Part shown: positions 26,415 through 37,642 of the stretch, piece by piece
How positions within the stretch are numbered: position 1 is the stretch's first letter
Layout of the letters: each line of letters starts with the position of its first letter
NCBI GenBank assembly: GCA_965207375.1
Contig: CBDBMG010000003.1
Coordinates: 768,001-832,000 of the forward strand
Length of the DNA: 64,000 nucleotides
Origin: Nitrosopumilaceae archaeon
GTDB lineage: Archaea > Thermoproteota > Nitrososphaeria > Nitrososphaerales > Nitrosopumilaceae
Direction of reading: 5' to 3'
Position numbers and translations under genes: made by a program
The notes under the pieces: model-generated
Seen by the model: the letters and a program-made list of their open reading frames with translations, nothing else
Told to the model about the DNA's origin: nothing
Database searches by the model: none

Positions 26415-26888
26415 ACTTTTTAAATCAATAAAAAGATTATAATATATCCAACATTAATAACAACTATCTGCACAAGTCCATACTGTACATGTACGTATAT
26501 ATGTAAACAAGATGTTATGGTATGCATAGCATACGGTATCTTGCATAAAAAAGTTTGTGAAATTATGGTGAATATTTGCGACATCTTTGTGAAGCCTTAG
26601 GCACGAGGGTGTGACGTGACGAAGCTAATGAAATGGTCTCAAAACAGTTTATACAATTGATTGAGTGTCACGCATTTTGTAGGGTTGCGGTTTGTACAGG
26701 TAATTACCATGTGTAAACGATCGCGAGGCTATATGGCACGCATCTTGTTTGCGAAGTAGAGACAAAGTAACTTCATCTACACACACGTTGTTCGCTTCTT
26801 TCGCAATGCAGACACTTGTATAAATTGCTGTGCTAATTAAATCCTGTTTATTTTGTTAGAGTCTAACAACTGTTAGCTTACCTTTATC

Positions 26889-27394
26889 TAGTCTCGCAGG
26901 CCAGACCCTTTTTTAGGAATAGCGCGCGCCAAAGGCGCGCAAAAAAGGGTCTGGAAAACTGACAGTAGCGCTTTTGTTCTGACACCCACCAACTTTTTGG
27001 TGGGTGTTAAATTGTTGAAAGCATAGCGGTACCTCAGATGCGTGAAGTTATTCGCGAAAATATGCATCGTAGAGATTCAAAATGTTATAAAAGAGGTAAT
27101 AGCTTCAATTTGTTTGTTCTTAAGAGAAGCGATTCCTATTTCCCTAGCTGCCGCTTCTGCAGCTGCTTGAATAACATGTTCCTCTAATGATTGGCTCGGC
27201 CATTTTGAATCTCTATGCATATTTTCGCGAATAACTTCACGCATCTGAGGTACCGCTATGCTTTCAACAATTTAACACCCACCAAAAAGTTGGTGGGTGT
27301 CAGAACAAAAGCGCTACTGTCAGTTTTCCAGACCCTTTTTTGCGCGCCTTCGGCGCGCGCTATTCCTAAAAAAAGGGTCTGGCCTGCGAGACTA
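26889..27394. mobile_element. hAT-type foldback MITE with near-perfect long arms
   Basis: TAGTCTCGCAGGCCAGACCC termini, inverted arms of roughly 180 bp, 8-bp TSD CCTTTATC. Confidence 0.9.
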
Positions 27395-27433
27395 CCTTTA
27401 TCTACTGTTGGCCTTATTCGCGCGTTAGTTATT

Positions 27434-33901: not shown

Positions 33902-34500
33902 GCATCCTGGGGTTTATAAATCCATAGATAGTATAACCTACGATCTACGATAAATCTATGCATGCACTGATGCGCACTAAATAAACACTACAATTTGCGA
34001 ATTAAATAGTATTTCCATGGTATTTCAATTAAATATTTTGAAATCCAATCGGACAGGGACTGAGGTGTTAATTGGTGTGAAATTCCTCCGCTTCCAATCC
34101 CGTACCTGGGGTTTATAAATCTATGGTCTTTGAGCCTATGGATCGACGTTTTTGTAGCGAATTGTTATTGCATTTTATAAGTAGATAGGTTGCTTCTATA
34201 CTCAAGATATTCTATTAAATCAATCTACGCAGCCGGTAAGATTAATAAAGCATGTTTACAATTTTAACTTAGTTGCGTGGGCTAAATGAGGCCTCCACCC
34301 ACCTAGTAGCTCTATCATTGATTACCATCACGTGATTTGATTGCAATCAGTCTTGTATCCGTGTAAGGGAGAAATTCACACTTCGTTAAGTAAGTTATAT
34401 AACATTATATTGGCATATTATAATCAACAACAATATTATAAGGCCTAATGTGACGAAATGAATTATAGCGAAATCAATGTAAACTGTTCTTTTTGCCAGA

Positions 34501-36296
34501 TTAGCTGAGTATCTTCTTCTTAGCCGTAGTTCTCAATATCTGACAAGACTTGGAAAGGGAAGCTCGGCATTTGTCCCAAATTCCTTCGAATTGGATAGCT
34601 GGCATGGTGGGCACTCTGGATCTAACTACAGCCTTTATGTAGTCTAATTTTTATTTATCTAGTGAGCCCGTATTGTTTTTGCCGCTGAGGCTGCTTCTAG
34701 ATAGTGCGTCTTTCCCAAAAATGGCTTCGCGAGCCAAAGCAGTAGTCAGTCGGCGAAGCGAAGCCACATCATTCCCGGGATAGTCCCTCATTACTTGTTC
34801 TACTGGTAATAACTTTGGTGGTGTGTTAAATGGAGGAGGTAAAATGGTCGCTTGATGGGCTGACACTGGCTGAGTCACCTGAGTAACTGAATCAGCTGGG
34901 GCTGATGGTGGATGGGCTGACGTTCCCCATGGAGTTGATGGTAAAGATGACTGGGTCATAGATAATGAACTTGTTTGAGCTGGTGGATTGACTAACATTG
35001 ACTGAGTCACCTGAGTGACTGAATCAGCTGAATTGGATGGGGTTGATGGTGGATGGGCTGACATTCCCCATGCCCATGGAGTTGGTGGTAAAGATGGCTG
35101 GGTCATAGAAAATGAACTATTTTGAGTCGGTGGAGTCACTGAATAGATGGACATTGGCTGAGTGGCTATGTCAGCTGGAGTTAGTAGATTGGATGGAGCT
35201 GGTGGATGTGCTGATGTTCCCCAAGGAGTCGATGGATTAGATAGCTGGGTCACAGATAATCTGGTTGGAACTGGTGTATCGACTGCCATTGGTGGAGTCA
35301 CTGAATAAGCTGCCACTGATGGATTTACTGAAGGTGTTTGAGCAGCTGTGGAAGTTGATTCTTTATCAGATGACAATACGGATTGCCAAGAAGGAGAATT
35401 CATAAACTCTAATTCCTCATCTGTTGTTTCCAACAGCTCCATGATGGTTGGAGTTGAACACCTGTTTGCTTCAGCCACTTGGGTTTGTGAAACCATTTGT
35501 GTGGGTACTTGAGCCACTTGCTGGGATTGAGCAATCATTTGTGGGGGTGCTTGAGCCACTTGCTGGGATTGAGCAACCATCTGTGTTGGTGCAAGTGTTG
35601 GGATGGTGTGTTTCACCATGTTGGTGAGCAAACTGATTATTTGGGATTGCTGTTCAACAAGTTGAGACAAAATTAGATTACTTTCTCCACCTGTATGATA
35701 TAAATACCAAGCATAAGTTTACTGTAATATCTATATGTATGATGTATGTATATGTACCTTTACTTGTTGTATTCTCTGGTATGTTCCCTACTTGTAATAC
35801 TGTTCCTGATGGTTTGTCATCGCCTACATACAAGAAGATGAATTCTTTTAATTACAACCCACTGTAGAGCTTACGTTTTGCAGGCCTTTTAGATGTTTTC
35901 TTAGTTTGAGATTTTTTCTGAGGTGTCCCCTTTTTACTTGCTGCATTGGTAGCTGGCTGCTGAACAGTAGTTTCAGCTTGAGGTGTTAAAGGTGCAGCTA
36001 TACAATTATATGAATTAGCTATTGGTAATATATAATCTGTTTTTAACTGTGTATATACCATTATCGTTTGGTGGGCGTGGTACACTAGGATCAATAAAAA
36101 CAGCGTTCCAATGAGTGATCTTCTTCTTGCTTTTCCATGGAACGGTGATTTTGCAACCATGTACCAATTCGTTTTTTGAATACAGCTCGTCCAGCACCTC
36201 CGCGTCGAGCCATACCTCCTTGCCGTCCCATTTCTTCGAATTATTCCCTTCAAACCTAACGACGTAGCGTTTAGGGTTGAAAAAAGAACAAGCCAT
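34501..36296 (-). pseudogene. Transposon accessory gene: N-terminal Trp-containing domain, coiled coil, P/S/T/Q-rich linker, C-terminal BEN-like domain (copy 1)
   Basis: Exons about 36059-36296, 35859-35997, 35758-35823, 34501-35691. C-terminus LAREAIFGKDALSRSSLSG...LDK*KLDYIKAVV...IWDKCRASLSKSCQILR matches the BEN pattern. Premature TAA at 34651. Confidence 0.72.
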
Positions 36297-37642
36297 AATC
36301 GTTACGCAGCTACAACTATGAAGCTAGTAAGTTAGCGAATGGCTACGTTTGTGATTTGTCCGCTGTTTACCTGTGTCTATCTTCGTGCTTCGCGAGGTGC
36401 TATATGCATACTTCGCGACGTGCTGTGCATACTTTGCGAAGGAATATAGCAACGGTGCATAGCGTGGCGAATCGGTGCGTTCACGATGCGAAGGTATTGC
36501 TTCGCGAGGGGTTTCCCTGCGCGAGGCGCGACGAACTATAATTGCATACCACTGGCTGTAAAATGTATGCGTAGGTGTTCGAGATAATTTCGCCATTTAG
36601 CGAGTTATAAGAATGTTCGCGAACATATCGCGAGTATTTCGCAAACTTTTTTATGCAAGATACCGTAGGTCATCGAAAGTTGCACAGTTTTTGCATTACC
36701 CTTATTATGTAACTATAAATAACGAGGCGCATGTACTTTTGGGCCCACATGATAAAATGACCTTTGTGTTACCCAGTGATAGAATCACCTCTAGGTTATT
36801 AGTAAATTAAGCAATTGAACTTTAAAAGGGAGTTTTAAAAGTGTGTAATTTACCAAAAATCACACAGCAGCACATTAAGTCACGCACCTGTACATTTTCC
36901 ATAGGATTTTTTGTCGCACAGTAAGTTTGAAAACTTTATACCATTTTGGGTCATTTTGGGTGCCTTGTACTAGAAGATAGATCTGATCGATCCGATAGGT
37001 GGTCCTCCAGGACATGTTAGTATACACCCGTATATTTCTGCATAACAAAGTACGTATATGCAATGCATTGAGCTGTGTACTGCGCGACTTTAGGTGGTGG
37101 TCGACTTTTGATGAGTGACGCTACATGTATGATGTGTGTTCCACACATAGTAGTCCTATGTAAATACGTACATTCACGTACTAGGTACGTAAAAGCAAGA
37201 GTCCATAATCTATTATGGACATTTGGTAAAAGTGATTGGAAGGAAAACTTCCTGTATTTTACTGTACTGATGAATTTTGGATGAAAAATTAAAATTTTGC
37301 AGACAATCGCCAAATTCAACAATTGTACAATTGTGATTATCCAAGCAAAAACCAACCTATAATATAGTAACCACATCATCGTACCTCTTACTAATATTTT
37401 GATTAATGTACAGGGCAAATTGTGACTATCTGAGTGAGCTAGTTCACACCGCTAATTTTCCCTAGTTACCTATAAATCCTTTATTGAATGTCACACAAGT
37501 TTTCAGAAATGATAAAGTGATGTGTTTATTCTACTAATCCTGTACATAAATACGGGCCCTGTGTGTATTTTAAGTATAAATTAAAAGGTATTGAAGTGAC
37601 AAAATTTGGAAGTAAGTAAATAGAAAACAAACTTCACTAAGT

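Follow-up and report, generated by a model that had tools for sequence, protein, structure and literature searches.

The window analysed here is a 64,000-nt stretch deposited as part of a Nitrosopumilaceae archaeon assembly (GCA_965207375.1, contig CBDBMG010000003.1, positions 768,001 to 832,000 of the forward strand); it is eukaryotic DNA and belongs to contig C4 of a four-contig, 4.3-Mb set. It contains a 10.1-kb transposon, designated E1, which was shown to represent a Tc1-like lineage (DD34E, TA-inserting, with terminal inverted repeats (TIRs) of about 30 nt) carrying both a transposase gene and, convergent to it between the TIRs, an intron-containing gene for a BEN-domain protein of about 536 aa. 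The best overall explanation, to which a probability of about 0.55 was assigned, is a two-gene Tc1-like lineage whose BEN protein acts on its own element, presumably as a cofactor. In E1 itself, the transposase gene is intact and the accessory gene contains a stop codon.

An earlier sequence-only reading had proposed TA-flanked TIRs beginning with CGGTA, and these were recovered by a repeat search of the window as a 32-nt pair including the TA (26532-26563 and 36636-36667), 97% complementary, both starting with TA followed by CGGTA and with a TA outside each end. Within the window, the 22-nt pattern of these ends had four matches, where 100 shuffles lead one to expect none. Contigs from four public runs (X1-X4), all DNA-like, were aligned to positions 26400-36800, and one contig from run X3 (depth 8, 30 letters on the shorter side) joined 26533 directly to 36669, with a single TA left and one letter substituted. 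In this empty-site contig the two flanks meet at one TA and the element is missing; the 10.1 kb was therefore determined to be one TA-duplicating insertion, and it is missing from at least one sequenced haplotype, apparently of the same organism. The proposal that 26534-36665 forms one element therefore held as far as a single insertion is concerned; it had missed two nested insertions, a 502-bp foldback about 40 bp ahead of the transposase start codon and a 5.08-kb P-element-like transposon, without which E1 measures about 4.5 kb. Contigs free of each nested insertion were present in run X4 (joint 26878 to 27393, 12 shared letters) and run X2 (joint 29038 to 34126, 7 shared letters), in agreement with the target-site duplications (TSDs) read from the flanks of both, that of the foldback being the 12-bp TACCTTTATCTA at 26879-26890 and 27393-27404. 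The P-like transposon is no part of the Tc1-like element proper, and both nested insertions are later, unrelated transposons.

The E1 transposase lies in an open reading frame (ORF) at 27209-28441 (+), within which the likely coding sequence (CDS) is 27434-28441 and aligns without gaps to two intact relatives. It matched Pfam DDE_3 with E=4.5e-23 (82.2 bits, cut-off 28.6), and its nearest solved structure was the catalytic domain of Sleeping Beauty SB100X (5cr4, E=8.4e-25). Alignment to the transposases of the metagenome loci L005 and L006 was gapless, at 67% and 65% identity respectively, with D152, D238 and E273 invariant; 34 residues separate D238 from E273 when counted by hand on the alignment, confirming the DD34E assignment made earlier. 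For a putative N-terminal helix-turn-helix (HTH), two Pfam profiles matched in the expected place at sub-threshold scores (HTH_Tnp_Tc3_2, 27.3 bits, cut-off 31.5; HTH_32, 22.3 bits, cut-off 33.7). A scan of viral contigs with the transposase gave no match.

The second gene of E1, previously described as convergent and spliced, is predicted to comprise four exons on the (-) strand totalling 1608 nt (536 codons), with all introns GT-AG and all in phase 1. The product begins with the N-terminal domain, continues through a stretch rich in lysine, a conserved short helix and a disordered linker that evolves fast, and ends in the BEN domain; exon 4 codes for the helix (LSQLVEQQSQIISLL), the repeat-rich linker, an acidic motif and the BEN domain. 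The same exon order and intron phases were found in copy 2 of the gene (55510-57416), and L006 has a phase-1 donor after its N-domain exon, as in E1, followed by a K-rich exon. Between copies 1 and 2, the N domain is 55-56% and the BEN part 65-76% identical at the amino acid level, while the linkers are unalignable save for one short acidic motif, so the contrast between conserved termini and diverged linkers noted from the sequence stands. Copy 1 is broken by one in-frame TAA (34653-34651), 47 codons from the end. In copy 2 there are two TAG stops and a 1-nt deletion, with an internal duplication in addition, and copy 3 has several frameshifts. Joints skipping the introns were absent from the DNA-like contigs of the four public runs, which are uninformative on expression.

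Identification of the C-terminal domain as BEN, also suggested by the sequence-only reading, is supported by profile scores of relatives and by a predicted all-alpha BEN fold. Its roughly 105 residues are strongly conserved in 58 database proteins, many with open frames and most of them single-exon ORF calls with wildly different linkers. The E1 domain itself scored 21.7 bits against Pfam BEN (PF10523), just below the gathering cut-off of 23.2, and relatives exceeded it (P0041, 24.7; P0046, 29.4; the copy in a further element of the same genome, E4, 33.5; L015, 25.8). Other family members scored 17.8-21.2 bits, and four of five element-borne BEN-family ORFs gave no PF10523 match at E<=0.01. 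A family profile searched against the sequences of the PDB found BEND3 BEN4 as its best, weak match (E=0.024). The AlphaFold2 (AF2) model of the BEN part (predicted local distance difference test (pLDDT) 89.3, predicted template modelling score (pTM) 0.81) contains five helices, and in a Foldseek search of the PDB, ranks 1-16 among the matches listed were all BEN domains (BEND3, BANP, BEND6, NACC1), with a template modelling (TM) score of at most 0.63, a root-mean-square deviation (rmsd) of 1.9-2.9 A over 82-99 columns, probability 1.00 at ranks 1-5, and E-values that are weak, 4.8e-3 at best. No Pfam match to Myb/SANT was obtained in the accessory protein.

The N-terminal domain, about 60 residues long, was modelled by AF2 as beta-beta-alpha-beta-beta, a small beta-barrel (pLDDT 77), and was found in 204 representative clusters at E<=1e-3. 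None of 41 members matched Pfam and 10 longer proteins gave no relevant Pfam match; Foldseek against the PDB returned nothing at E<=1e-3, its top rows being unrelated folds with TM<=0.32, and the ESM Atlas gave no usable match. A complex prediction for the transposase with the N domain scored 0.01, which is no answer and counts neither way.

Co-occurrence of the two genes was assessed under two ascertainments, one by transposase alone, in which BEN was not presupposed, and one by BEN among metagenome contigs. Under the first, a convergent BEN-family gene was located just downstream of the transposase in 8 of 11 informative loci, and because of this proportion the transposase clade can be said to carry a BEN gene nearly always. 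All three sites of the transposase family in the same 4.3-Mb genome (E1, E3 and E4) have a convergent BEN-family ORF downstream. In the genome-contig collection, five of ten transposase-found loci have a BEN-family match 71-638 bp downstream of the transposase on the other strand (L015, L017, L019, L020 and L021, the last also with an N domain); L022, in which a remnant-like ORF was visible by eye, was left uncounted, and L018 and L023 were too short to judge. Apart from the L019/L020 pair, these positive loci differ by 31-41% in the transposase C-terminus. The BEN-based search contributed L005 and L006, in which an intact 335-aa transposase lies about 350 bp beyond the BEN stop.

Complete two-gene copies were found in two other assemblies. 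L006 is bounded by a 22-nt perfect TIR (845-866 and 6006-6027, about 5.2 kb, the second TIR being cut by the contig end) and contains an N-domain exon, a BEN exon and a transposase, with all ORFs open and both genes intact. In L021, a 26-nt perfect TIR (7526-7551 and 11868-11893) encloses a transposase, a BEN match and an N-domain match within 4368 bp. The TIRs of the complete copies start alike (TA-CGGTAT..GCATAAAAAAG, TA-CAGTACGTTGCAAAAAAAG and TA-CAGTATGGGTCATAAAAAAG), and TIRs related to those of E1 were identified in a second window element (E2), L006 and L021; TIRs of L015, L017, L019 and L020 were searched for and not found.

Both genes show the mark of constraint. In a comparison of E1, L005, L006, L004 and L007, the proportion of nonsynonymous differences (pN) in BEN was 0.25-0.34 against a saturated proportion of synonymous differences (pS) of 0.76-0.86, and in the transposase 0.17-0.24 against 0.86-0.90. 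Since the synonymous sites are saturated, dN/dS proper is not computable and pN/pS is reported in its place; the same saturation means that the true ratios lie well below the pN/pS quotients. Of the per-domain dN/dS comparison envisaged at the outset, what stands is therefore a pN far below pS in both genes, and these patterns indicate that both are kept by selection. Together with the co-occurrence count and the complete pairs in L006 and L021, they uphold the earlier claim that the accessory gene is a standing component and no one-off capture. The two-gene architecture is very probably a conserved trait of the family.

Two further elements of the same kind are present in the window. The sequence-only reading had placed each of two accessory homologues beside a DD34E transposase; both homologues exist, and for copy 2 the neighbour proved to be of another kind. 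Copy 2 lies on the (-) strand of E2, in the same orientation relative to the element ends as in E1, with about 2.5-3 kb of other DNA between its 5' end and the right end and with no cognate transposase. The transposase that does lie there (57700-58719) is DD34E (DDE_3, E=2.7e-21) and only 26-27% identical to that of E1; judged by this divergence, it is probably not the partner of copy 2 and belongs to another family. No borders could be defined for the DNA around it. Beyond its end and convergent to it lies a pair of ORFs forming two exons (59849-59394 and 59214-58894, -) without Pfam match, and the interval 57700-59849 may represent another Tc1-like element with a second gene, for which no TIRs were found. 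The right end of E2 abuts, to the base, the middle of the transposase reading frame of E3, of which the C-terminal half of an E1-type transposase (60676-61230, +; 49% amino acid identity) and, convergent to it, the decayed accessory copy 3 (61855-62794, -) remain; a right end was searched for in E3 and not found. An additional right end is present at 54125-54212. Elsewhere in the genome, E4 (C4:537569-541295) has a transposase 51% identical to that of E1, split by a 1.9-kb foldback, and a search for its TIRs found none. This foldback (L001:6057-7938; C4:539057-540938) has 606-nt arms (97%). A remnant on contig C3 comprises a BEN fragment (C3:621705-621899), a weak N-domain match (C3:611421) and TIR-like words (C3:610433 and L002:9439-9457).

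The motif TCGCGA, clustered just inside the right end of E1, marks a stretch upstream of the accessory gene that may be bound by protein or serve as a promoter. The 4.3-Mb genome as a whole has 177 occurrences (0.041 per kb), and the motif was also found four times and twice at the two ends of L006, four times at the end of L005 and twice at a solo right end; the sites of E2 are mostly TpG/CpA-decayed. The left subterminal region of E2 (54500-54620) contains a tandem array of a unit of about 19 nt (GCTACCTTACTTCGTGAAA), the units including TTCGTGA, a CpG-decay form of TTCGCGA. BEN domains have been described as sequence-specific DNA binders, and the BEN domain of BANP as binding a CGCG motif (PMC10206803; 10.1101/2021.11.03.467208). 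Because TCGCGA clusters at the element ends and the BANP domain binds CGCG, it is proposed that the BEN protein binds the subterminal repeats and aids the transposase. It would act as a sequence-specific binder on the element's own DNA, its likeliest target being the CGCG-containing TCGCGA repeats just inside the ends, and would serve transposition as a cofactor in end recognition, synapsis or recruitment, comparable to the Myb-like protein of PIF/Harbinger; protein contacts would fall to the N-terminal domain or to the helix. That the accessory protein acts on the element itself is, on the sequence evidence, somewhat more probable than not, and that it is a required cofactor, as the PIF/Harbinger analogy would have it, is a good deal less so.

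Several observations weigh against this cofactor interpretation or against the generality of the pairing. The accessory gene is broken in all three window copies. The BEN gene of E4 lacks a detectable N domain and is only about 25-28% identical to E1 BEN. The five positive genome-contig loci all come from one assembly, with L019 and L020 near-duplicates, and no BEN gene was detected in L016 or L024, L016 being a complete 2.6-kb relative (48% identity) with 30-nt TIRs. Only 2 of 11 BEN-found metagenome loci contain the transposase; six others are without it across 0.7-4 kb downstream (three being too short, this amounts to six of eight informative loci), and two of the transposase-free loci adjoin ankyrin-repeat genes. 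Pairwise divergence of BEN and transposase, in a table compiled without L006 BEN, gave a Spearman coefficient of 0.30 (p=0.13, 27 non-independent pairs), the Pearson coefficient being driven by one near-duplicate pair; with no clear correlation, long co-inheritance is not proven over repeated acquisition. No TCGCGA cluster was found at the ends of L021, and the repeats could instead be transposase sites or a host-factor promoter element.

Among the alternatives, the one that survives best takes the BEN protein to be an element-encoded regulator, which represses or times transposase expression or shields the element from silencing in the manner of an insulator while the transposase alone carries out transposition. 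The BEN proteins known so far act in transcriptional repression or as insulators, and the titles of the retrieved papers and PDB entries agree with such a role; furthermore, the TCGCGA cluster is located upstream of the accessory gene itself (36297-36665), a position that suits sites of promoter function or auto-regulation no less than end-binding sites. Conservation and position fit regulator and cofactor equally, and the regulator was considered a possibility of roughly one in four. Of similarly low likelihood is a stricter form of the cofactor interpretation, an obligate two-protein system in which BEN would recognize subterminal repeats of the CGCG type and bring in or activate the transposase; the solo members of the BEN family, of which there are many, would be its domesticated or decaying descendants.

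It was also considered that the BEN gene might be cargo, derived from a host-type gene that an ancestor of the clade captured on one occasion and that confers an indirect benefit or hitch-hikes without acting on element DNA. This would account for the same-type BEN genes with no nearby transposase in six of eight informative BEN-found loci, for the 1475-aa ORF of L019 that ends in the same domain, and for E2, which has retained the accessory gene and not the transposase. It is opposed by the purifying selection on the BEN gene in elements that differ by 33-35% in their transposase, and by the convergent position and exon plan common to E1, E2 and L006. Moreover, small cut-and-paste elements usually lose hitch-hiking cargo quickly, and cargo was judged improbable. 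The BEN copies outside elements may be genes of the host or domesticated ones, may have decayed, or may derive from such elements in non-autonomous form, as E2 does. Finally, chance nesting, with a BEN gene of the host or of another element flanked by TIRs by accident, might be entertained in a region full of nested elements where the transposase next to copy 2 is of another family, but it is highly implausible given that the empty site lies exactly at the TIR ends and removes both genes together, and that order and orientation recur in 8 of 11 informative transposase-found loci and within TIRs in two other assemblies.

Table 1. Coordinates of the E1 components, its nested insertions and the related elements of the window.
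Feature	Position	Strand	Basis or description
Left TA target-site duplication of E1	26532..26533		Single TA kept by empty-site contig
Left TIR of E1 (CGGTATCTTGCATAAAAAAG...)	26534..26563	+	Inverted repeat, 32 nt including TA, 97%
Nested foldback, miniature inverted-repeat transposable element (MITE)-like	26891..27392 (502 bp)		162-nt arms, 99% complementary
Tc1-like DD34E transposase CDS of E1, 335 aa, intact	27434..28441	+	DDE_3 match, gapless alignment to relatives
Nested P-element/THAP9-like transposon	29046..34125 (5.08 kb)	+	36-nt perfect TIRs, 7-bp TSD GTCTTTG
Accessory exon 4	34507..35690	-	Helix, linker, acidic motif, BEN domain (~34510-34830)
Accessory exon 3	35758..35823	-	22 codons, phase-1 borders; counterpart exon in copy 2
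Accessory exon 2	35875..35997	-	Lysine-rich, nuclear localization signal (NLS)-like; K-rich exons also in copy 2 and L006
Accessory exon 1	36059..36296	-	Codes for conserved ~60-aa N-terminal domain (beta-beta-alpha-beta-beta), family not known
Right subterminal TCGCGA cluster of E1	36390..36633		Five hexamers and two CpG-decay variants in 244 bp
Right TIR of E1	36636..36665	-	Inverted-repeat partner of left TIR
Right TA target-site duplication of E1	36666..36667		Flank reading and empty-site contig
Element 2 (E2), same family	54267..60673	+	Left and right ends homologous to those of E1; TA at 54265-54266 and 60674-60675
Element 3 (E3), remnant	60676..62794		Half transposase and decayed accessory copy 3

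The P-like transposon carries a multi-exon THAP9-like transposase gene (+, 29992-32664) and a 328-aa ORF (32861-33847, -), with Pfam matches to TNP-like_RNaseH_N/C and a weak match to Tnp_P_element_C (ORF 32861-33847). Short TIR-only copies of it lie at 32705-32755 and about 33904-33930, and in the public contigs it occurs as a 2.5-kb internal-deletion form (joint 29749 to 32281) and as TIR-to-TIR mini forms. Terminal sequence akin to that of the window foldback (TAGTCTCGC..GGCCAGACC) was found again near 52.5 kb (52532-52633). Two further joints are unexplained, the letters between their sides not being known: 26494 to 26818 (runs X1 and X2), which spans the left E1 TIR, and 36058 to 36329 (run X1), which replaces exactly exon 1 plus 32 nt. 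Strand asymmetry is strong in window positions 46000-50000, with a GC skew to -0.33 and an AT skew of +0.24 at 48-50 kb (2-kb bins).

Outside the window, the contigs bearing L015, L017, L019, L020 and L021 (0.36-2.6 Mb, labelled as a bacterial metagenome-assembled genome (MAG)) contain several Tc1-like transposons with intron-type BEN genes and look eukaryotic. On L019, an uninterrupted 1475-aa ORF (1063-5487, -) located upstream of the transposase copy ends in the same BEN-family domain (family hidden Markov model (HMM), E=1e-10) and gave no Pfam match whatsoever. The solo BEN genes L004:1473-2894 and L008:3462-4730 adjoin ankyrin-repeat ORFs (Ank_2, E=5.6e-111 and 1.4e-27, respectively).

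The lineage shares with the Tc1 family (Tc1, Sleeping Beauty) the TA duplication, TIRs of about 30 nt, a DDE_3 domain of the DD34E type and, less certainly since the Pfam scores are below threshold, an HTH region at the N-terminus. For Tc1 elements, a length of about 1.3 kb and a single ORF have been described (PMC7325037), in contrast to the 4.4-5.2 kb (without nested inserts) and the second, spliced, convergent gene found here. Given this second, four-exon gene between the TIRs, and the same pairing in relatives, the E1 lineage is best regarded as a variant of the Tc1-like kind. Multi-ORF members of the Tc1/mariner superfamily, with a DD34E transposase and further ORFs, have been described in ciliates as TBE and Tec (PMC7325037). 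Compared by description only, these differ from E1 in that they are ciliate germline elements, Tec with very long TIRs, and in that their extra ORFs code for a zinc-finger protein, a small ORF of no known kind or a tyrosine recombinase, and not for BEN.

PIF/Harbinger elements are two-gene transposons that encode a transposase and a Myb/SANT-like DNA-binding protein. They provide the working analogy of a cut-and-paste element with a separate DNA-binding-protein gene beside the transposase gene, but their transposase is PIF/IS5-like, their partner is Myb/SANT and their TSD is 3 bp, unlike the Tc1-like transposase, BEN protein and TA found here. Cellular BEN proteins (BANP, BEND3, BEND6, NACC1; Drosophila Insv/Elba) have the same fold according to AF2 and Foldseek, and the CGCG preference of BANP is paralleled by the CGCG-type motif enriched at the element ends. 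They are host transcription or chromatin factors carrying other partner domains, however, whereas the protein described here resides in a transposon and has an N domain without Pfam match. No description of a BEN gene in a Tc1-like element was found in the literature searched, a search that lay outside Repbase and Dfam and in which 'Tc1/mariner' is poorly searchable; among the matches listed for BEN domain and transposon, none describes such an element, and where BEN domain and Tc1 transposase occurred together, BEN appeared in the reference list only. Within that literature, the combination of a Tc1-like transposon and a conserved BEN accessory gene is new, as the sequence-only reading had surmised.

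Tc1/mariner is the textbook minimal transposon, with one gene and two ends, and the Sleeping Beauty tools rest on that picture. A Tc1-like lineage that keeps a spliced BEN gene would mean that the superfamily has also evolved helper or regulator proteins in animals, the BEN fold would gain its first home inside a mobile element, and there would be a concrete route for the origin of BEN-domain host factors. Were the obligate two-protein system to prove true, the DNA-binding BEN proteins of animals would have a source in transposons, as is the case for THAP, BED and paired domains. The lineage is widespread, with 204 N-domain clusters and 58 BEN-part homologues, and the intact gene pair of L006 makes a bench test feasible.

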